From NCBI GenBank assembly GCA_012841525.1, contig DUUO01000032.1:6166-70165 (forward strand): DNA of 64,000 nucleotides. The letters are read 5' to 3'. The notes under the pieces are model-generated. The model saw only the letters and a list, made by a program, of their open reading frames with translations, had not been told where the DNA came from and did no database searches. Each line of letters starts with the position of its first letter. Position 1 is the stretch's first letter. This stretch comes from Clostridiales bacterium. Its GTDB lineage: Bacteria > Bacillota > Clostridia > Christensenellales > DTU072. The translations under genes were made by a program, and so were the position numbers. Below are positions 4,854 through 23,235 of this stretch, in pieces.

Positions 4854-6851
4854 TTGAGTAAAAATTTTAATTTATCTGATGTGAAAGGCGTAGGGCCTGT
4901 AACAGAAAAAAAGTTAAATGAATTAGGAATTAAATCTATTAAAGATTTAGTTCATTTTTTGCCTTGTAGATATATTGATTTAGATGCACCTACATCTTTA
5001 TCTAAAGTAGAAGATGGCGATTATGTATTGTTAAAGCTTTTTATAAGTTCCATTTCAAAACCATATAAAATTAGGGGTTCACTATTAGTCAGAGCACATG
5101 GTAAAACTGATGAAGGTAAAAGTGTAAAACTTATATGGTTTAATGCTTCTTATGTTTATAAAACTATAGATAAAAATGCATATATTAGAGTTTTTGGCAA
5201 AATTTCAATGGATAATGGCTATCAATTAGTCAATCCAAAATTTGAAAAATTTCAAGAAAATAACACTAAGTTTCATGGTATATCTGCCATTTATCCTCTT
5301 AAGAAAAGAATTCCGCAACAAACATATGCATCTATTGTAAATGATGCAATAAGCAAAACAGAGATTAAAGGATTTATTCCAAGCGAAGTTGAAGAAAAAT
5401 TTAATCTTATGAAATATGAAAATGCCGTAAAATTAGTTCACAAACCAAAAAATATTGAAGATGGAGAAAATGCAAGTATAAGAATAGAACTTGATGAAAT
5501 AGTAAAAAAAGCATGTGCACATAAAGTGTTAAAAACAAACAAAAATAGACAAAAGATTTATAATGCGACATTAGATGAATTAAACTCATTAATATCTTTG
5601 TTGCCTTTCAAATTAAATGATTCACAAGAAAAGGCAGTTAAAAAAATTGTCAAATCTCTCAAATCAGAAAATCAATTAAATGCACTGCTCGCTGGTGATG
5701 TTGGTAGTGGTAAAACTGTCGTTAGTCTCATTATTGCATATTTTGCTGTTTTATCTGGTTATCAAGTTGCTTTTATTGCTCCAACTGAAGTGCTTTCTAT
5801 GCAGCACTATAATAATTTTATTTCTTTACTCAGCAATTTAAATGTAAACATTTCTCTATTGACATCTAATATAAAAACGTCAGAAAAAAAACAAATATTA
5901 AAAAAATTAAAAGAGGGTGAAACTGACATTATAGTAGGTACTCATTCACTACTTTCTAAAACTGTACAATTTAAAAATCTTTCTTTAGTAATTATTGATG
6001 AGCAACATAGATTTGGAGTTTCACAAAGAAATATGCTCATTTCAAAAACTGAAAATACAGACATATTAATGCTCTCAGCAACACCAATCCCAAGATCACT
6101 TAGGTTTATTATGCTAGGTGAAGTTGATTATATACAAATTGACAATAGGTTTTTGAAAAATAGAATTAAAACAAGATTAGTCCCAACTGAAAAATATGAT
6201 GATATGTTAAAGTATATCGTAAAAGAATGTACAAGTGGTGCACAAGCATTTTTTATTGCTCCAAAAATTTATGACTGTGAAGGTATTGAAACAGCAAATG
6301 TAGATAGGCTATATAAAAATTTATCTAAGAAAATTGGTAAAGAAGTTAATATTGGATATTTACATGGAAAATTAACATTTCAACAAAAGCAAAAAATATT
6401 GGATGATTTTAGTAACAACGAAATATCAATTTTAATAAGTACAACTGTTGTGGAAGTCGGAATAGACGTGCCAAATGCAAACTTAATGGTGATTTTTGAT
6501 GCAGATAGATTTGGTCTTGCAACGCTTCATCAATTAAGAGGACGTATAGGCAGGGATGGGAAAGAAGCATATTGTTTTTTATTTCCTCAAAAAGATGAAA
6601 ATGAAAGATTAGAAATGTTTTGCAAAATGGCAAGTGGAATGGAAATTGCAGAATATGATTTTAGTATCAGAGGCCCTGGTGCATGGTATGGACAAGAGCA
6701 AAGCGGTTACCTATCATCTGCTTTTAGTTTACCAATACGCTATATTGAGAACATAAAAGAAATAGTTGAAAATATTGACATTCAATCTATGCGATACGAA
6801 CTTTTAGCATATGCTTTAAGTTATGGATTAGATAAAGTTTCAATAACTTAA
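4854..6851 (+). CDS. recG: ATP-dependent DNA helicase RecG
   Basis: Track ORF with Walker A GDVGSGKT, DEQHRFG, SATPIPRS and QLRGRIGR. The TTG start comes from the track and the exact start is uncertain. Confidence 0.9.
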   Translation: MSKNFNLSDVKGVGPVTEKKLNELGIKSIKDLVHFLPCRYIDLDAPTSLSKVEDGDYVLLKLFISSISKPYKIRGSLLVRAHGKTDEGKSVKLIWFNASYVYKTIDKNAYIRVFGKISMDNGYQLVNPKFEKFQENNTKFHGISAIYPLKKRIPQQTYASIVNDAISKTEIKGFIPSEVEEKFNLMKYENAVKLVHKPKNIEDGENASIRIELDEIVKKACAHKVLKTNKNRQKIYNATLDELNSLISLLPFKLNDSQEKAVKKIVKSLKSENQLNALLAGDVGSGKTVVSLIIAYFAVLSGYQVAFIAPTEVLSMQHYNNFISLLSNLNVNISLLTSNIKTSEKKQILKKLKEGETDIIVGTHSLLSKTVQFKNLSLVIIDEQHRFGVSQRNMLISKTENTDILMLSATPIPRSLRFIMLGEVDYIQIDNRFLKNRIKTRLVPTEKYDDMLKYIVKECTSGAQAFFIAPKIYDCEGIETANVDRLYKNLSKKIGKEVNIGYLHGKLTFQQKQKILDDFSNNEISILISTTVVEVGIDVPNANLMVIFDADRFGLATLHQLRGRIGRDGKEAYCFLFPQKDENERLEMFCKMASGMEIAEYDFSIRGPGAWYGQEQSGYLSSAFSLPIRYIENIKEIVENIDIQSMRYELLAYALSYGLDKVSIT

Positions 6852-6897
6852 TTTTTTATTATGGATTAGATAAAGTTTCAGCAACTTAATTTTTATT
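6823..6897 (+). repeat. 38-bp tandem duplication spanning the recG stop codon (3'-end echo)
   Basis: atggattagataaagtttcaATaacttaatttttt(t)att at 6823-6860 is repeated at 6861-6897 with 2 substitutions and 1 T indel. Copy 2 still reads YGLDKVSAT-stop, against YGLDKVSIT-stop in recG. Confidence 0.85.
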
Positions 6898-7117
6898 ATG
6901 TTTATTGAAAGTAATGATATATGTAATTGCAAACAAAATTTCGCCTAAATTGAAAAAATCCAAGATAATTTGATTTAGATTACAATATAAAATTTAATTT
7001 AGTATTATTAGTTAAAATATTATTAGTCGTAATACCTTGATATTGTTTATAATAAAATGTAATATTTAATGTAATATATATTTAAACACATTCGCCAAGT
7101 GAAGAGGGAGGTTTTTT

Positions 7118-10287: not shown

Positions 10288-12219
10288 ATGAAAATTACAT
10301 ATAAAGATAAAGTTTATAACTATGATGATGGAGTTATGTTTATAGATATAGCAAAAGATTTAGCTCTTGAAGATTTTAAAAAAATTCTTGCTGTCAAAGT
10401 CGATGAAAAGCTTATAGGTTTATATACTCTTGTAGAAGGTGATTCAACAATAGATTTTGTTACTTTTGAGTCGCCAGAAGGAAAAGATATATATAGACAT
10501 AGTTCTGCTCATATTATGGCGCAAGCAGTTAAAAGATTATATCCAGATGTAAAAGTTGCAATAGGTCCTTCTATTGAAAATGGCTTTTACTATGATTTTG
10601 ATTTTACAAGCCCAATTAGTAAAGATGATTTAGAAAAAATAGAAAAGGAAATGACTAAAATCATTAAGGCAAATTATCCAATTATCAGACAAGAAATAAC
10701 AAAAAAAGAAGCATTTGAAATGTTCCAAAACCACAATGAAATATATAAAATTGATCTTATTGAACATTTGCCAGAAGAAGAGACAATTTCCATATATAAA
10801 CAAGAAGACTTTATCGATTTATGTAGAGGACCTCATGTTCCATCTACAAGATATATAAAAGCATTTAAACTTTTATCCGTGACAGGTGCTTATTGGCGTG
10901 GTGATGAAAAAAATAAAATGCTTACAAGAATATATGGAACCAGCTTTGATACAAAAGAAGCACTAGCAGCACATTTAGAAGCACTAGAAGAAGCAAAACA
11001 AAACGATCATAATAAGATTGGAAGAGAGTTGAGATATTTTATGACCGATGAAAATATTGGTCAAGGCTTACCTTTATTAATGCCAAAAGGTGCAAAGCTA
11101 TTTCAAATATTAACTCGTTTTATAGAGGATACCGAAGCAAAAGAAGGCTATGAACTAACGAAAACTCCATATCTTGCAAAAAGCAAATTATATAAAATAT
11201 CAAAACACTGGGATCACTATAGAGATGGAATGTTTATAATAGACAACGAAGATGAAAATGAAGTAATGGCATTAAGACCTATGACATGTCCATTTCAATA
11301 TACAATATATAATAACGGCTTAAAATCATATAGAGATTTACCAGTAAAATATGCTGAAACTTCCACATTGTTTAGAAACGAATCAAGCGGAGAAATGCAT
11401 GGTTTAATTAGAGTGCGTCAATTTACAATATCAGAGGCACACATTATGTGTATGCCATCACAACTTGAGGAAGAATTCAAAAAGGTATTAAATTTAATTC
11501 ATTATGTTTTGAAGGCTGTAGGTTTAGATGATGATATTAGTTATAGATTTTCTAGATGGGATCCTAGTGAAACTGGAAAGTATATTAACGCTCCAGAGAA
11601 ATGGGAAAAAGCAGAAAAAGAAATGGAAAAAATCTTAAAAGATTTAAATATTGAATATACTACAGGTATTGGAGAAGCTGCTTTTTATGGACCAAAGTTA
11701 GATATACAAATTAAAAATGTCTATGGAAAAGAAGATACATTAGTTACTGTACAAGTTGACATGTTTTTAGCAGAAAATTTTGATATGACTTATATTGATG
11801 AATCAGGACAAAAACAAAGACCATATATCATTCATAGAACATCAATTGGCTGCTATGAAAGAACAATGGCTCTATTATTAGAAAAATATAAAGGAGCATT
11901 ACCATTATGGCTTTCTCCTGAACAAGTAAGGGTAATTAGTTTAACTGATAGAACAATAGATAATACAATCGAAATTGAAAAAATATTGAGAAACGCAAAT
12001 ATTAGAGTAACTTCAGATACTAGAAATGAAAAAGTTGGTTATAAAATTAGAGAAGCACAACTTGAAAAAGTTCCATACATGTTAGTAATTGGTGATAAAG
12101 AAGTTGAAAATGGAGTTGTCGCAGTCCGAAAAAGATCAAAAGGCGATATTGGTACAATGACTCTAGACGAATTTATTAATATGTTGAAGGAAGAAATAGA
12201 AAATAAAGTATTGTCATAG
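10288..12219 (+). CDS. thrS: Threonyl-tRNA synthetase
   Basis: Track ORF with a TGS-like N-terminus, the editing-domain motif HSSAHIMAQAV, and class II motifs RPMTCPF and FRNESSGEMHGLIRVRQF. Confidence 0.95.
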   Translation: MKITYKDKVYNYDDGVMFIDIAKDLALEDFKKILAVKVDEKLIGLYTLVEGDSTIDFVTFESPEGKDIYRHSSAHIMAQAVKRLYPDVKVAIGPSIENGFYYDFDFTSPISKDDLEKIEKEMTKIIKANYPIIRQEITKKEAFEMFQNHNEIYKIDLIEHLPEEETISIYKQEDFIDLCRGPHVPSTRYIKAFKLLSVTGAYWRGDEKNKMLTRIYGTSFDTKEALAAHLEALEEAKQNDHNKIGRELRYFMTDENIGQGLPLLMPKGAKLFQILTRFIEDTEAKEGYELTKTPYLAKSKLYKISKHWDHYRDGMFIIDNEDENEVMALRPMTCPFQYTIYNNGLKSYRDLPVKYAETSTLFRNESSGEMHGLIRVRQFTISEAHIMCMPSQLEEEFKKVLNLIHYVLKAVGLDDDISYRFSRWDPSETGKYINAPEKWEKAEKEMEKILKDLNIEYTTGIGEAAFYGPKLDIQIKNVYGKEDTLVTVQVDMFLAENFDMTYIDESGQKQRPYIIHRTSIGCYERTMALLLEKYKGALPLWLSPEQVRVISLTDRTIDNTIEIEKILRNANIRVTSDTRNEKVGYKIREAQLEKVPYMLVIGDKEVENGVVAVRKRSKGDIGTMTLDEFINMLKEEIENKVLS

Positions 12220-12298
12220 AAGACAAAATTATATAACGACTCTAGATATTTTATTAATATGTTGAAGAAGAAAATTGAAGATAAAATATTTTCATAGA
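12159..12298 (+). repeat. thrS 3'-end echo: last ~61 bp of thrS plus a degenerate second copy 79 bp downstream
   Basis: gactctagacgaatttattaatatgttgaaggaagaaatagaaaataaagtattgtcatag (12159-12219) compares with gactctagatattttattaatatgttgaagaagaaaattgaagataaaatattttcatag (12238-12298). The echo reads MLKKKIEDKIFS-stop, against MLKEEIENKVLS-stop in thrS. Confidence 0.75.
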
Positions 12299-12372
12299 GT
12301 ATGAAAGATATAAATCATTTTGATTTCAGTTTAGAATTGAAGTCAATTGATTAATAAAAAAATATTATATAG

Positions 12373-12879
12373 TTGGGGATAAAAAAGGCAAAATCGAGCA
12401 AAAAAACTGCATCTAAGAAAAATATTGATGTTGTAAATTTAATTTTAGGTTTAGTTGCGATAATTTCAGGCATACTAATTAGTATTTTTGAAAACGATTA
12501 TCTACAAGGTATTATGATAGCTTTAGGGATATTTTTTGTTGCCTTGGTGCATATAACCTTGGTAAGAAGCAATATGTTCAAGAAATTGCATTGATAATAC
12601 TTGGCATTTTGCTTATATTTTTAACTGTATATGAATATGAAATTGCTCTTGTTATGCTAGGAGTTACAATTATACTTATATCTATCTTGATGCTTGTGGT
12701 GTCAATTAAAAGAAAAGGGTGCAAAGGCAGGTTTAATGTATGCAATTTTAATACTCGGACTTTTAGCAGGATCTGTTATTATTTCAATTGCTTATGTTTA
12801 TGAATCTTGGCTTTATATTTTATTTGGAGTATCATTTGCTGCTACTGGACTATTACTTTTAATAAAATCTGTTGTATAA
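12373..12879 (+). pseudogene. Frame-broken gene for a small polytopic membrane protein built of three ~55-aa two-TM repeats (or three overlapping mini-ORFs)
   Basis: Track ORFs 12373-12594 (frame 1), 12591-12803 (frame 3) and 12694-12879 (frame 1) each encode one copy of a K-rich segment followed by ..ILG.. and two hydrophobic helices. No SD precedes the 2nd or 3rd piece. The second junction lies at the A/G run attaaaagaaaagggtgc (12705-12722). Confidence 0.4.
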
Positions 12880-12945
12880 AAACTTAAAAATAAACATTAA
12901 ATATTTTATTGGCAAATTGATTAAAGTAAATGAGTTATTTAATTT

Positions 12946-12969
12946 GGGTATTTGAAAAAGTAAATACCC
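12946..12969 (+). terminator. Hairpin downstream of the membrane-gene cluster (possible terminator, no clear U-tract)
   Basis: GGGTATTT-gaaaaagt-AAATACCC is an 8-bp stem, but it is followed by aaataat rather than a T-run. Confidence 0.3.
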
Positions 12970-13007
12970 AAATAATATGCAAGAAGCAATATTTTTAAAC
13001 AATTTTC

Positions 13008-13037
13008 TTGACAACATATTTATGTTAATGTTATTAT
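13008..13037 (+). promoter_or_regulatory. Putative sigma-70-type promoter of the infC-rpmI-rplT operon
   Basis: TTGACA (13008-13013), then 18 nt, then TATTAT (13032-13037), about 220 nt upstream of infC. Confidence 0.45.
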
Positions 13038-13054
13038 TTGCAAGAAGTAGAAAA

Positions 13055-13160
13055 ATCTCACCAGATGTAATTAAGCAGTATGGTTCTAAAATTTAATAAT
13101 TATCAATAATACTTGATATTATTTTTTGGTGAGATGTGTTTTTAAACACATTTTTTATTT
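13055..13160 (+). promoter_or_regulatory. infC leader with long-range helix plus terminator hairpin (L20-leader-like attenuator)
   Basis: ATCTCACCA (13055-13063) pairs with TGGTGAGAT (13127-13135). Immediately after comes hairpin ATGTGTT-ttta-AACACAT (13134-13151) followed by tttttatttt. The position corresponds to the L20-responsive leader of Firmicute infC operons. Confidence 0.45.
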
Positions 13161-13258
13161 TAAATGAGTATTTTGTATTAATATCTATAAAGGTATTTAC
13201 ATAACTAAAATAAATACAAATATGTCAGTTTTATATCGCTGACTATAAGGAGGATAGT

Positions 13259-13792
13259 ATTATTAAAGAATTACCAATTAACTCTGAAATCAGATCAAAA
13301 GAAGTTCGTTTAATTGATTCAAACGGTGAAATGCTAGGGATTTTTGCACTTAACTACGCTCTAGATAAAGCATATGATCAAAATCTAGATTTAGTGTTAA
13401 TATCACCAGGTGCAAATCCACCTGTTGCCAAAATTATGGACTATAAAAAATATCGTTATGATCAAACCAAAAGATTAAAAGAAGAAAGAAGAAAGCAAGC
13501 ACAAGCATCAATTCAAGTGAGAGATATATGGCTTTCTGCAACAATTGATGTTGGCGATCTAAAAACCAAGGCTAAAAAAGGCAGAGAGTTTATAGAAAAT
13601 GGTGATAAGGTAAGAGCTAGCATTAGAATGAGAGGACGTCAAATGTTGCATCCTGAAGCAGGAATTGAAGTAATGAATAATTTCTTTGAACTCTTGTCTG
13701 ATGTTGCAGAAATTGAAAGTGCTCCAGTTCAACAAGGTCGTTCAATATATATGGTACTTGCTCCAATATCAACAAAGCAAAAAAACAAATAA
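13259..13792 (+). CDS. infC: Translation initiation factor IF-3, with non-AUG (AUU) start
   Basis: The track ORF starts at an internal Met (13331). The frame is open from 13214, and (M)IKELPINSEIRSKEVRLIDSNGEMLGI aligns with the IF-3 N-terminus. SD AAGGAGGA (13247-13254) is followed by ATT ATT at 13259/13262. Confidence 0.9.
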   Translation: MIKELPINSEIRSKEVRLIDSNGEMLGIFALNYALDKAYDQNLDLVLISPGANPPVAKIMDYKKYRYDQTKRLKEERRKQAQASIQVRDIWLSATIDVGDLKTKAKKGREFIENGDKVRASIRMRGRQMLHPEAGIEVMNNFFELLSDVAEIESAPVQQGRSIYMVLAPISTKQKNK

Positions 13793-17232: not shown

Positions 17233-17497
17233 AAAACAATAAATATTTTGTCAAAATGTATTGTTAAATTGATACAAATATACAAATAAATTAATATTAG
17301 TGTAAATTACAAAAATGCATGATCAAAATAAGTAGTATACAATAAAATATATGACTAAAAATAGGTAGTATACTATATAAGACCTTTGGTGTAAAAAAAA
17401 AGCCTTTTTAATTTATGATTAAATTAAACTTATGGGCTTATATATTTTTTTAAAATAGTTATATAAATCAAAATAATTATTAAATGAGGAGATGTAT

Positions 17498-18463
17498 ATG
17501 GCAAAAATAGCAGTTCTTACAAGTGGTGGTGATGCTCCTGGAATGAATGCTACTATTAGAGCAATAGTCAGAAGTGGTATTTACGCAGGGCATGAAATTT
17601 ATGGTATTGAAAGAGGTTTTGAAGGTCTATTAAACAGACAAATCAAGCGAATGGATTCCAGATGTGTGTCAGATATAATTCAAAGAGGTGGAACAATATT
17701 AAAAACTGCTAGAAGTGAAGAATTTAATACCCCAGAAGGAGTCCGAAAAGCTGCAGAAATATTAAAAGCATTTAAAATTGATGCCTTAGTTGTAATTGGT
17801 GGTGATGGTTCATTTAGAGGAGCAAAGGATCTTGTGAATTTAGAAAATTTTAATTGTTTGGGAATTCCTTGCACAATTGATAATGATTTATCATATACTG
17901 ATTATACTATTGGTTTTGATACGGCAACAAATACAGTAGTATCAGCAATTAATAGCATTAGAGATACAATGACTTCACATGATAGAGCTTGTATTATTGA
18001 AGTCATGGGCAGAAAATGTGGAGACATTGCTTTGTATTCAGGCATCGCATCTGGTGCAGAAAGTATTTTAGTGCCAGAATTGCCTTTTGATATAAAAGCG
18101 ATTACAAATAAAATGCGCACAAATCAAATTAAAGGAAAAGTTTCCGATATTATTGTGTTAGCAGAGGGGGTATGTGGTTGCGGTGAATTAAAGGCAATGA
18201 TACAAGAAGAAATCGATATTGTTATTAGAACAGTTAAATTAGGATATATACAACGTGGTGGCTCACCAACAATGGCAGATAGGGTGCTAGGTGCTCGTTT
18301 AGCAGAAAGAGCAATTGCATTATTTAATAATGGCTTTACTGGTGGTCGCTGTGTGGGAATAAAAAATGGTAAAATTATTGATTTATCAATTGATGAAGTT
18401 CTTAATGCCCCTTCAAAATTCAATAAAGAACTATATGACATAGCAACCAAATTGTCTTTTTAA
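17498..18463 (+). CDS. pfkA: ATP-dependent 6-phosphofructokinase
   Basis: MAKIAVLTSGGDAPGMNA, VIGGDGS, GIPCTIDND and MGRKCGDIAL. SD gaggag is spaced better for the ATG at 17498 than for 17492. Confidence 0.9.
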   Translation: MAKIAVLTSGGDAPGMNATIRAIVRSGIYAGHEIYGIERGFEGLLNRQIKRMDSRCVSDIIQRGGTILKTARSEEFNTPEGVRKAAEILKAFKIDALVVIGGDGSFRGAKDLVNLENFNCLGIPCTIDNDLSYTDYTIGFDTATNTVVSAINSIRDTMTSHDRACIIEVMGRKCGDIALYSGIASGAESILVPELPFDIKAITNKMRTNQIKGKVSDIIVLAEGVCGCGELKAMIQEEIDIVIRTVKLGYIQRGGSPTMADRVLGARLAERAIALFNNGFTGGRCVGIKNGKIIDLSIDEVLNAPSKFNKELYDIATKLSF

Positions 18464-18645
18464 TTGATAGTTGAACTAAATAAAAGTAGTATTAAATTAC
18501 TAGAATAATAACAACTAAATTGTCTTTTTAATTGGTAGTTGAACTAAATAAAAGTAGTATTAAATTACTAGAATAATAACAACTAAATTGTCTTTATAAT
18601 AGATAATTGAACTAAAGAAAAACAATGTTAAATTAATAAAATAGT
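18446..18645 (+). repeat. 68-bp tandem repeat (2 near-identical copies plus a diverged third) starting inside the last codons of pfkA
   Basis: The anchor attgtcttt recurs at 18451, 18519 and 18587, giving a period of 68. Each copy keeps ac(c/t)aaattgtctt(t/a)taa, read as TKLSF-stop, TKLSF-stop and TKLSL-stop. Confidence 0.85.
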
Positions 18646-18760
18646 TGTTACTTTGTTTCAAAAAAACATTTGTGTTTGTTATAATGAAATCGAGAGTTAT
18701 AAAAAACTACTTTATAAAAAATAAGTCAGTTTATTACTGTCTATAAAACAAGGAGAGATT

Positions 18761-20017
18761 ATGAAAAATTTAGTCGGAGCATGTATGTTTGGTCAATCAG
18801 GAGGTCCAACCTCAGTTATTAATGCCAGTGCAGCAGGAGTTTTTATGCAAGCACTTCAAGAGAAAAACATAACAGCAGTTTATGGATTAGCACATGGAAT
18901 TAAAGGACTATTAAACGAAGATTTTTATGACATTGGGCAAGAAGATATGAATGAATTAGAATTATTAAAATATACTCCTTCTTCAGCACTAGGCTCAGTT
19001 AGATATAAATTAGTCGATGAAAGTATAGATGATACTGATTATAAAAGAATATTAGAAGTTTTTAAAAAGTATAATGTAAGATATTTTTTCTATAATGGTG
19101 GAAACGATAGCATGGATACATGTAATAAAATTTCTAAATATTTACAAAAAGTTGGTTATGATTGTAATATTATTGGTGTCCCAAAAACAATAGATAATGA
19201 CTTATATGGAACAGATCATTGTCCTGGATATGGATCTGCTGCCAAATATGTTGCAACAACATTAATGGAAATAAATCTAGATGCAAAAGTTTATGATAAA
19301 CCTCAAGTTTGTGTTGTCGAAATAATGGGTAGACATGCTGGTTGGCTAACTGCTGCTAGTAAACTTGCAGATTATAAAGGCTTAGGCCCAGATTTAATAT
19401 ATCTACCAGAAGTTCCTTTTTGTATTGACAAATTTAAAAATGATGTTAAAAGGGTAATGGATGCCAACAATGGACATTGTATTGCTTGTGTATCAGAAGG
19501 AGTTCAAGACAAAGATGGTAAATTTATTGTTGAAGCATTGTCTGAAGCAAAAAGCAGAGACAATTTTGGACATGCACAATTAGGTGGACTTGCAATTCAA
19601 CTTTCTAGTTTAATTAATGAAGAATTTGGAGTAAAAGTAAGAGGTGTTGAATTTAGTCTTTTACAAAGATGTGCTGCTCATCTTGCATCTAAGGTGGATG
19701 TTGAGGAAGCATTTAACGCAGGAAAGAAGGCTGTTGAAGCGGCATGTGCTGGCAATACAGATAAGATGATTATATTTGAAAGAACAAATATTGATGGCAA
19801 ATATGGTTGCGATTACAAATTGATGGATTTAGAGCTTGCTGCTAATACAGAAAGAAAAGTTCCAGTTGAATGGATTACAGAAGATGGAACAATGCTATCT
19901 GATGAATTTGTAGATTATGCACTTCCTTTAATTCAAGGAGAAGCAAAAGCACCATTAGAAGATGGTCTACCAAGATTTGCAAAATTAAAAAAAGTACAAG
20001 CAGGAAAAGCAAAATAA
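18761..20017 (+). CDS. pfp: Pyrophosphate-dependent phosphofructokinase (PFK family, PPi-type signature)
   Basis: Track ORF with GGPTSVINAS, NGGNDS (Asp where ATP-PFKs have the second Gly of GGDGS), GVPKTIDND (Lys in place of Gly) and MGRHAGWL. Confidence 0.75.
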   Translation: MKNLVGACMFGQSGGPTSVINASAAGVFMQALQEKNITAVYGLAHGIKGLLNEDFYDIGQEDMNELELLKYTPSSALGSVRYKLVDESIDDTDYKRILEVFKKYNVRYFFYNGGNDSMDTCNKISKYLQKVGYDCNIIGVPKTIDNDLYGTDHCPGYGSAAKYVATTLMEINLDAKVYDKPQVCVVEIMGRHAGWLTAASKLADYKGLGPDLIYLPEVPFCIDKFKNDVKRVMDANNGHCIACVSEGVQDKDGKFIVEALSEAKSRDNFGHAQLGGLAIQLSSLINEEFGVKVRGVEFSLLQRCAAHLASKVDVEEAFNAGKKAVEAACAGNTDKMIIFERTNIDGKYGCDYKLMDLELAANTERKVPVEWITEDGTMLSDEFVDYALPLIQGEAKAPLEDGLPRFAKLKKVQAGKAK

Positions 20018-22126: not shown

Positions 22127-23095
22127 ATGATGAATAAAAAAACAAAAATAGTAGTGTTAGATGGTTATTGTGTTAATAGTGGTGATTTAAGTTGGGAAAA
22201 ATTTGAAACACTTGGTGATTTAGTAGTATATGATAATACACCATATGATTTAATCCCACAACGAGCAAAAGATGCAGATGTTATAATAACCAATAAATGC
22301 AATTTAGACTCTAATATTATAGATAAACTACCTTCATTGAAATATATAGGTGAGTTAGCAACTGGATACAATAATATTGATATTCAATATGCAAGAAAGA
22401 AAGGCATCACTGTTACAAATGTTCCAGCATATAGTACATCAAGTGTAGTACAAACTATTATTGGCTTTATAATTAGCCTATCTCTAAATTTACCGCATCA
22501 TTTTGAAAGAGTAAAAAAAGGTGATTGGGTAACTTGTGAGAATTTTTGTTTTTATGAACAAGGAATGGTTGAAATATCTGGAAAAACGTTAGGGATTATT
22601 GGTTTTGGAAATATTGGAATGAACTTAAAAGATGTAGCAAATGCTTTTGGAATGAAAGTTGTCGTTTTTTCAAATTCAAGACATAAAAAAGAAGATGGAA
22701 CATTTAATTATGTTTCAATGGACGATTTGTTTTCAACCTCTGATTTTATTGCCTTAACTTGTCCTTTAACAAATAAAAACAAAGGATTTGTTAATAAAGA
22801 TAAACTTTCACTTATGAAAAAAAGCGCATTTTTAATAAATACAGCAAGAGGTCCACTTGTAAATGAAGAAGATTTGGCATATGCATTAAATACAGGTTTG
22901 ATTAAAGGTGCAGCAGTGGATGTGTTGACCGATGAACCTCCAAAAGCATCAAATCCACTACTTAATGCAAAAAACATTTTGATTACTCCACATCTAGCAT
23001 GGGCAACTTATGAAGCACGTTCTAGACTATTAAATGCTGCATATGAAAATTTAAAAGCATTTTTAAACGGACATAATTTGAATGTTATTAATTAA
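22127..23095 (+). CDS. D-isomer-specific 2-hydroxyacid dehydrogenase (glycerate/hydroxypyruvate reductase-like)
   Basis: Track ORF with the NAD fold GIIGFGNIG, plus NTARGPLV, AVDVLTDEP and TPHLAW. Confidence 0.8.
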   Translation: MMNKKTKIVVLDGYCVNSGDLSWEKFETLGDLVVYDNTPYDLIPQRAKDADVIITNKCNLDSNIIDKLPSLKYIGELATGYNNIDIQYARKKGITVTNVPAYSTSSVVQTIIGFIISLSLNLPHHFERVKKGDWVTCENFCFYEQGMVEISGKTLGIIGFGNIGMNLKDVANAFGMKVVVFSNSRHKKEDGTFNYVSMDDLFSTSDFIALTCPLTNKNKGFVNKDKLSLMKKSAFLINTARGPLVNEEDLAYALNTGLIKGAAVDVLTDEPPKASNPLLNAKNILITPHLAWATYEARSRLLNAAYENLKAFLNGHNLNVIN

Positions 23096-23235
23096 ATAAG
23101 TTTAGTTTAGATATGTTGTTAAATGGGCAAAAATTGAATGATATGAATTAAATAAATTTAGATGTGTTGTTAAATTGATAAAAATTGAATGATATAAATT
23201 AAATAAGTTTAGTTTAGATATATTGTAAATTGAAA
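23068..23235 (+). repeat. Three degenerate tandem copies (period ~51-56 bp) beginning in the last codons of the dehydrogenase gene
   Basis: The anchor ttgaatg recurs at 23078, 23134 and 23185. The copies read ..LNVIN-stop (real gene end), ..LNDMN-stop and ..LNDIN-stop. Each is followed by aataa(g/a)ttt(agttt)agat(a/g)t(g/a)ttgt(t)aaat. Confidence 0.75.

Follow-up and report, generated by a model that had tools for sequence, protein, structure and literature searches.

A tandem array across the stop codon of pfkA and an excess of short tandem duplications in one genus of uncultured Clostridia

Tandem duplications mediated by microhomology (MTDs) occur commonly across life, being found in bacteria, archaea, and eukaryotes, where they are mostly neutral and depleted from coding DNA (PMC13167724; bioRxiv 10.64898/2026.02.28.708716). 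In yeast, deletion of rad27, which removes the flap nuclease Rad27, raises the number of new tandem duplications 7-10-fold (PMC13167724). In the present study, we describe a tandem array of 68-bp units that lies across the stop codon of pfkA, the gene for ATP-dependent 6-phosphofructokinase, in a 64,000-nucleotide stretch of DNA (contig DUUO01000032.1 of assembly GCA_012841525.1, positions 6,166 to 70,165 of the forward strand; hereafter the window), together with a survey of similar arrays in the rest of the genome and in its relatives. The organism belongs to the Clostridia, is uncultured, and is known solely through a metagenome assembly of 82 contigs (1.52 Mb, 29.5% G+C, standard bacterial code); the window is part of the contig that we label C72.

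Several other systems produce repeats of comparable size or position. Escherichia coli mutants in the 5′-nuclease of polA are duplication mutators, as is the case for flap-nuclease-deficient yeast. The mycobacterial interspersed repetitive units (MIRUs) of Mycobacterium tuberculosis are 46-101-bp tandem units that overlap the stop and start codons of flanking genes. Duplications in organelle genomes can be far longer and can rearrange gene order.

The arrays described here are closest to MTDs, with which we compared them using the framework of Dan et al. 2021 (PMC8639346), Wei et al. 2026 (PMC13167724), and the bioRxiv report (10.64898/2026.02.28.708716). Like MTDs, they consist of head-to-tail copies of local single-copy DNA of tens of bases, have microhomology arms in two-copy cases and later expansion to several copies, and are mostly neutral and depleted from coding sequence. 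They differ in that fixed arrays are unusually dense for one bacterial genus, covering roughly 15% of the intergenic DNA, in that approximately 5% of genes have an array across the stop codon, and in that the microhomology of the pfkA array itself is no longer readable. The words “stop codon” and “intergenic” are absent from the texts of PMC13167724 and the bioRxiv report.

Flap-endonuclease-deficient mutators (the yeast rad27 deletion and E. coli polA) are alike in duplication sizes, microhomology, and genome-wide excess, but the 5′-nuclease domain of DNA polymerase I (Pol I) is intact here and the resemblance would lie in a possible working rather than in a demonstrated cause. MIRUs and other variable-number tandem repeat (VNTR) minisatellites share with these arrays the intergenic tandem units of 40-100 bp, which may overlap the upstream stop codon, and a copy number that probably varies between strains; MIRUs, however, are one dispersed family, whereas each array here derives from its own local sequence. 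The intergenic gaps of mantis mitochondrial genomes (PMC5370444) and the microhomology-linked repeats of plant mitochondria (PMC7643612) appear to be similar remnants, in that local duplications lengthen the spacers and the copies later decay, although these are organelles and not the chromosome of a free-living bacterium.

The pfkA array occupies positions 18440-18643 and comprises 3.0 copies with a period of 68, 89% matches, and no indels (Tandem Repeats Finder score 317). The gene and the copies are, by position in the window:

17492..18463, forward strand: pfkA (323 aa) from the open reading frame (ORF) list, Pfam PF00365 with E=6.6e-105, ending ...YDIATKLSF-TAA
18440..18507, forward strand: copy 1 of the 68-bp unit, made up of the last 24 nt of pfkA with the real stop codon at 18461-18463, plus 44 nt downstream
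18508..18575, forward strand: copy 2, the youngest and apparently a mosaic according to the variable-site table, with an echo of the stop codon at 18529-18531
18576..18643, forward strand: copy 3, the oldest echo, with an echo of the stop codon at 18597-18599

An earlier inspection of the letters and ORFs of the window (the sequence-only reading) had reported that the 3′ end of pfkA is repeated with an exact 68-bp period, that the anchor ATTGTCTTT recurs at 18451, 18519, and 18587, and that copy 2 is nearly identical to copy 1 with copy 3 more diverged. We recovered the same period and found the anchor at exactly these positions, and the pairwise identities are 96% for copies 1 and 2, 84% for copies 2 and 3, and 82% for copies 1 and 3. 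The same reading counted TKLSF-stop three times, which is correct for copy 1, the real end of pfkA, and for copy 2, but not for copy 3, where the codons that it had itself given correctly read TKLSL-stop. Copies 2 and 3 are untranslated echoes. The flanks of the array match the unit at 29-34%, which is chance level, and a genome-wide search with the unit found only chance matches of 14-18 nt elsewhere.

Only one other species of the genus was available for comparison (G001, hereafter the sister species), in which PfkA is 87% identical, has the same C-terminus (...IANKLSF-stop), and is encoded in the same gene order. The features bordering pfkA and its array are:

17312..17377, forward strand: intergenic duplication of 33 bp x 2, upstream of pfkA
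18657..18685, forward strand: promoter-like site of the next gene (TTCAAA, 17 nt, TG-TATAAT), just past the array
18761..20017, forward strand: second phosphofructokinase-family gene (418 aa, PF00365 with E=2e-59), directly after pfkA

The two phosphofructokinase-family genes are adjacent in 24 of the 30 relatives searched, and the sister species has a comparable TTGATG...TATAAT site before the second of them. The spacer between the two genes is 297 bp here versus 92 bp in the sister species, where it contains no such array, and the spacer upstream of pfkA is 259 bp here versus 25 bp. Because the sister species has the same two genes with a 92-bp spacer and no array, the array at pfkA is, on this sequence comparison, local and derived.

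Thirteen sites vary among the three copies. At unit positions 4 and 9, copy 2 has the base of copy 3, and at ten variable sites between unit positions 21 and 64 it has that of copy 1; it also has a private change at site 28. The sister species has G at unit position 4, which is the ancestral state, so that the A common to copies 2 and 3 is derived. Copy 2 would accordingly be a mosaic of copies 1 and 3, although this is only moderately supported because just two sites lie on one side of the switch.

We consider the pfkA array very probably to be the non-functional debris of a local tandem duplication that was neutral and tolerated. A 68-bp stretch, reaching from 24 nt inside the 3′ end of pfkA to 44 nt downstream, would first have been duplicated in place, likely by replication slippage or template switching of the MTD type; both copies would then have diverged to ~82% identity, and a later out-of-register exchange or slippage between them may have given rise to the mosaic middle copy. 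The C-terminus and stop codon are preserved whole in copy 1, leaving the PfkA protein as it was, and the array ends upstream of the promoter-like site of the next gene. Given the unchanged protein and a promoter-like site outside the array, the insertion was probably near neutral and for that reason tolerated. At the scale of the genome, selection has purged duplications from gene interiors unless they were in frame, and from the 60-100 bp upstream of starts, leaving the remaining arrays in spacers and across stop codons.

Marks of the proposed mechanism are found in the two-copy arrays of the genome (n=18), in which the repeat track overshoots one period, giving a microhomology, by at least 3 nt in 56% of cases versus 9% by chance, and by at least 5 nt in 44% versus 1.5%. 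These overshoots, together with a 5-nt TTATG arm at the recG duplication described below, are marks of MTD.

Tandem Repeats Finder was run on the whole assembly, with genes called by a simple longest-ORF rule (1012 genes, 86% coding) and arrays scoring at least 100 regarded as strong. At a score of at least 50 there are 415 arrays, of which 224 are intergenic, 119 interior to genes, 59 stop-spanning, 12 start-spanning, and 1 both; the difference between stop- and start-spanning arrays is highly significant (binomial p=1.3e-8). The 227 strong arrays comprise 140 intergenic, 50 stop-spanning, 7 start-spanning, 1 both, and 29 interior, every one of the last (29/29) being in frame, and 115 arrays score at least 200. 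An order-3 Markov control genome of the same size gave 54 weak rows and none with a score of at least 100. Periods bunch at 30-70 bp (median 54, maximum 156) and identities are mostly 75-95%, with ages spread evenly over 80-95% identity and no young peak.

To express tolerance by position, units of the strong arrays were placed at random and the expectation was scaled to the intergenic class:

Stop-spanning: expected 39.8, seen 50, relative survival 1.26x
Start-spanning: expected 40.3, seen 7, relative survival 0.17x
In-frame interior: expected 331, seen 29, relative survival 0.09x
Out-of-frame interior: expected ~758, seen 0, relative survival 0

Arrays cover 6.3% of the last 20 nt of genes versus 1.25% of the first 20 nt, and coverage is reduced across the 60-100 nt upstream of start codons. 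The arrays are thus depleted from coding sequence by purifying selection. The proposal that duplications leaving the protein unchanged are those that survive agrees with the values for stop codons, start codons, and out-of-frame interiors. The associated expectation of a genome-wide enrichment at stop codons was borne out relative to starts (59 vs 12) and interiors, but not relative to intergenic DNA; since stop-spanning arrays exceed the intergenic class by only 1.26x, the stop codon is a tolerated and not a preferred position.

The density of strong arrays separates this genome from its relatives:

This genome: 1.52 Mb, 227 strong arrays, 14.9 per 100 kb
Sister species (G001): 220 kb sampled, 3 strong arrays, 1.4 per 100 kb
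Ten other relatives: 480 kb sampled, 0 strong arrays, 0 per 100 kb

The ten other relatives include two AT-rich genomes, with 32.5% and 34% G+C. The excess is common to the genus, being weaker in the sister species, and does not extend to the other sampled members of the family, which fits the earlier suggestion that this lineage has a high rate of short tandem duplication. All three strong arrays of the sister species are stop-spanning (L038:12345-12551, L013:16687-16762, and L068:11349-11488) and lie at genes other than those hit here, indicating independent events in each lineage.

Spacers have grown in parallel. Median spacer length is 161 bp in this genome against 47 bp for the sister species and 44 bp for another member of the family (G016), with coding densities of 86%, 94.5%, and 93%, respectively. 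Summed over 18 syntenic spacers, the length is 2727 bp here versus 1506 bp in the sister species, and by hand count recognisable duplicate copies make up roughly 40% of the extra length. The duplications have inflated the spacers of this genome approximately three-fold. We infer that the stop-spanning position is the main tolerated foothold in a compact genome, and that arrays once fixed add neutral DNA open to re-duplication.

A raised rate of formation is, on balance, a somewhat more likely cause of the excess than weaker purging or deletion, because selection against harmful arrays is plainly efficient and the genome is the smaller of the two species. The alternative is that the duplications are just as real and neutral and that the excess comes from weaker removal, which a small effective population or a weak bias toward deletion could cause. 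We regard this as possible but rather doubtful. In its favour, none of the replication or repair genes checked is missing, spacers are long overall (161 vs 47 bp) with recognisable repeats supplying only ~40% of the extra syntenic length, and array ages are even across 80-95% identity without a young peak; moreover, the value for the sister species is lower by only about two-fold when arrays are counted per gene 3′ end. However, a genome of 1.52 Mb, compared with 1.8 Mb in the sister species, does not suggest that DNA deletion fails in general, and weak selection does not accord with the efficient selection against out-of-frame and promoter-proximal arrays, nor weaker removal with the zero strong arrays in 480 kb of the ten other relatives, two of them AT-rich.

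With regard to a raised formation rate, the genes of replication and repair were examined for a determinant. The reading frame of Pol I runs uninterrupted for 851 aa and includes the 5′-nuclease domain (PF02739, E=3.7e-56); in comparison with 11 relatives all acidic motifs are kept, and one conservative change is specific to this genome. Loss of the flap endonuclease is accordingly not apparent from the sequence, the domain being present with its acidic motifs intact. Both this genome and its relatives have full-length MutS1, RecJ, RNase HII, and MutL, and none sets the genus apart. Ku (PF02735) occurs in 6 of the 21 genomes searched but in neither this genome nor the sister species, and its absence from both species of the genus argues against fill-in during Ku/LigD end joining.

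It is conceivable, and we put it forward tentatively, that this two-species genus of digester-type Clostridia carries a heritable tandem-duplication mutator state while its Pol I 5′-nuclease, MutS, MutL, RecJ, and RNase HII are intact. The genus would in that case represent, among bacteria, a natural parallel to flap-nuclease-deficient yeast. Stop-spanning duplications would be the first footholds of a self-reinforcing growth of spacers, from a median of 47 to 161 bp, and the echo copies would be datable fossils of earlier C-terminal codons.

Several observations weigh against the view that the pfkA array is neutral debris of MTD-type duplication in a lineage where such events are in excess. 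No genetic cause was found, the Pol I 5′-nuclease, MutS1, MutL, RecJ, and RNase HII all being present and apparently intact. Stop-spanning arrays per gene end amount to 4.9% here versus 2.1% (3/140) in the sister species, a difference that is not significant. The mosaic structure of copy 2 hangs on the two sites at one side of the switch. The repeat track at pfkA is exactly 3 x 68 nt without extra matching bases and its outer copy is old; with 3.0 copies and an old outer copy, the original junction is no longer legible and the microhomology of this array is not recoverable. The copy number at pfkA also rests on one metagenome assembly, as an exact-protein look-up yielded no independent assembly of the same species, and scans of metagenomes and genome collections returned only the sister species and distant relatives.

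The last of these points is the non-integer copy number of many young arrays, which a single slippage step does not explain and which is only partly accounted for. Fractional copy numbers are common, with many young arrays at 2.3-2.8 copies. Among fractional-copy arrays, 43% have a flank that aligns to the missing remainder of the unit above the 95th percentile of controls (per-flank control 5%). Filler insertion, serial slippage, and partial deletion were considered as further explanations, but only a decayed older copy in the flank is statistically supported, and this in less than half of the cases. Many arrays have layered histories. At C7:29049-29442, two nested arrays lie across the stop codon of one gene, a young one of 105 bp x 2.6 copies (98% identity) and, overlapping it, an older one of 84 bp; their different boundaries imply two or more distinct rounds of duplication at the same 3′ end. 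The polarity of the arrays, that is, whether the youngest copies lie nearest the gene, could be assessed in five usable arrays, of which three agree and two are ties, too few for a conclusion.

A functional role of the repeats, as terminators, as a transcript-stabilising 3′ untranslated region (UTR), or as binding sites upstream of the next promoter, seems to us very improbable. The sequence-only reading had raised a functional 3′ UTR as its alternative on the grounds that an obvious hairpin terminator is lacking; the lack is real, there being no intrinsic terminator predicted between pfkA and the next gene, and some other 3′ signal could be imagined in its place. Furthermore, 12-16% of arrays fold with a z score below -2 relative to shuffled sequence, which is slightly above expectation. 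The functional alternative itself is nevertheless not supported by any terminator, structure, shared motif, or conservation in the sister species. No terminator-like site is present in 18464-18760, and shuffled versions of the pfkA array fold about as well as the array itself (z=-0.57). For all strong arrays the mean fold z is only -0.58 (stop-spanning) and -0.38 (intergenic), and Rfam gives one chance-level match (E=0.91), far under the family threshold and outside the array. No sequence is common to the units at different loci, the sister species has no array at pfkA, recG, thrS, or the 2-hydroxyacid dehydrogenase gene, and convergent spacers (11.7% covered by arrays) are no richer than divergent ones (16.0%).

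It is equally improbable that the arrays were created in assembling a short-read metagenome bin and do not exist in the cell. The assembly is in 82 contigs, and several of these break off within an array whose match lies in an array at the end of another contig, showing that the assembler struggled with some of the arrays. However, an artefact would yield identical copies, whereas the copies here have diverged, most being 75-95% identical. An assembler is also blind to reading frames and promoters, yet all 29 of the strong interior arrays are in frame against none of ~758 expected out of frame, and arrays avoid the region upstream of start codons. Microhomology is present in the two-copy arrays, and the longest exact repeat within the pfkA array is 60 nt by hand count, which would be under the length of typical short reads. 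The pairs of contig ends that carry the same array unit are C22:1-194 with C39:5719-5987, C37:1-136 with C52:1-121, C55:14887-15056 with C56:1-147, and C16:14547-14697 with C27:1-146. At these places the assembly evidently broke inside arrays, and the members of each pair are probably adjacent in the chromosome.

Origin of the pfkA unit from a dispersed repeat family inserting at gene ends, of the MIRU, repetitive extragenic palindromic (REP), or miniature transposon type, can be set aside almost entirely, for although a small family of this kind exists (units at C74, C26, C13, and C62 match 8-16 other places), the pfkA unit matches its own locus only, with no off-locus match above chance, its first 24 nt come from the conserved C-terminal codons of pfkA itself, no copy away from the home locus exists for 190 of 215 strong units, and the 14 similar pairs among 259 units are mostly contig ends or overlapping arrays. 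The small family is located at C74:1704-1912, C26:9329-9425, C13:2174-2445, and C62:3173-3466, with C79:2235-2418 grouped by unit similarity, and may be a mobile-element remnant.

Taken alone, the pfkA array is an ordinary local duplication, neutral, of a type already well described, and without any hint of function, and the wider value lies only in the density of arrays at the level of the genus and in the clean map of tolerance. The genome offers an unusually clear natural record of the places at which a bacterial chromosome tolerates short tandem duplications, with a relative survival of 1.0 in spacers, ~1.3 at stops, 0.17 at starts, 0.09 for in-frame interiors, and 0 out of frame. The duplications visibly inflate the intergenic DNA of one genus in an otherwise compact family, and should a raised formation rate lie behind the excess, the lineage could lead to a determinant of duplication or slippage not yet recognised in bacteria. 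On the practical side, tandem arrays of this type break short-read assemblies; they are probably good strain markers, but their copy numbers in metagenome bins are not trustworthy without reads.

Three further genes in the window were said by the sequence-only reading to have their 3′ ends echoed just downstream, and all three echoes are real:

6821..6900, forward strand: duplication across the recG stop codon, 38 bp x 2.1, with 5-nt microhomology TTATG at its bounds
12153..12298, forward strand: echo of the thrS 3′ end, two older copies at 78-79 bp spacing with 86% identity and one indel
23063..23230, forward strand: array of 51-56-bp units in 3.1 copies, spanning the stop codon of the 2-hydroxyacid dehydrogenase gene

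The 3′ ends of the orthologues of all three genes are single-copy in the sister species. In the dehydrogenase array, echo copy 2 (ttaaatggg...) is nearer to the coding sequence of the sister species (ttaaatgggg...) than is the present functional copy (ttaaacggac...), suggesting that echo copies may keep older states of C-terminal codons. The ORF list contains no frame of at least 100 aa in the ~1.1 kb past thrS (12220-13330), a region likely to contain short genes or one whose start codon is unusual; the sister species has a gene beginning 46 nt after thrS.

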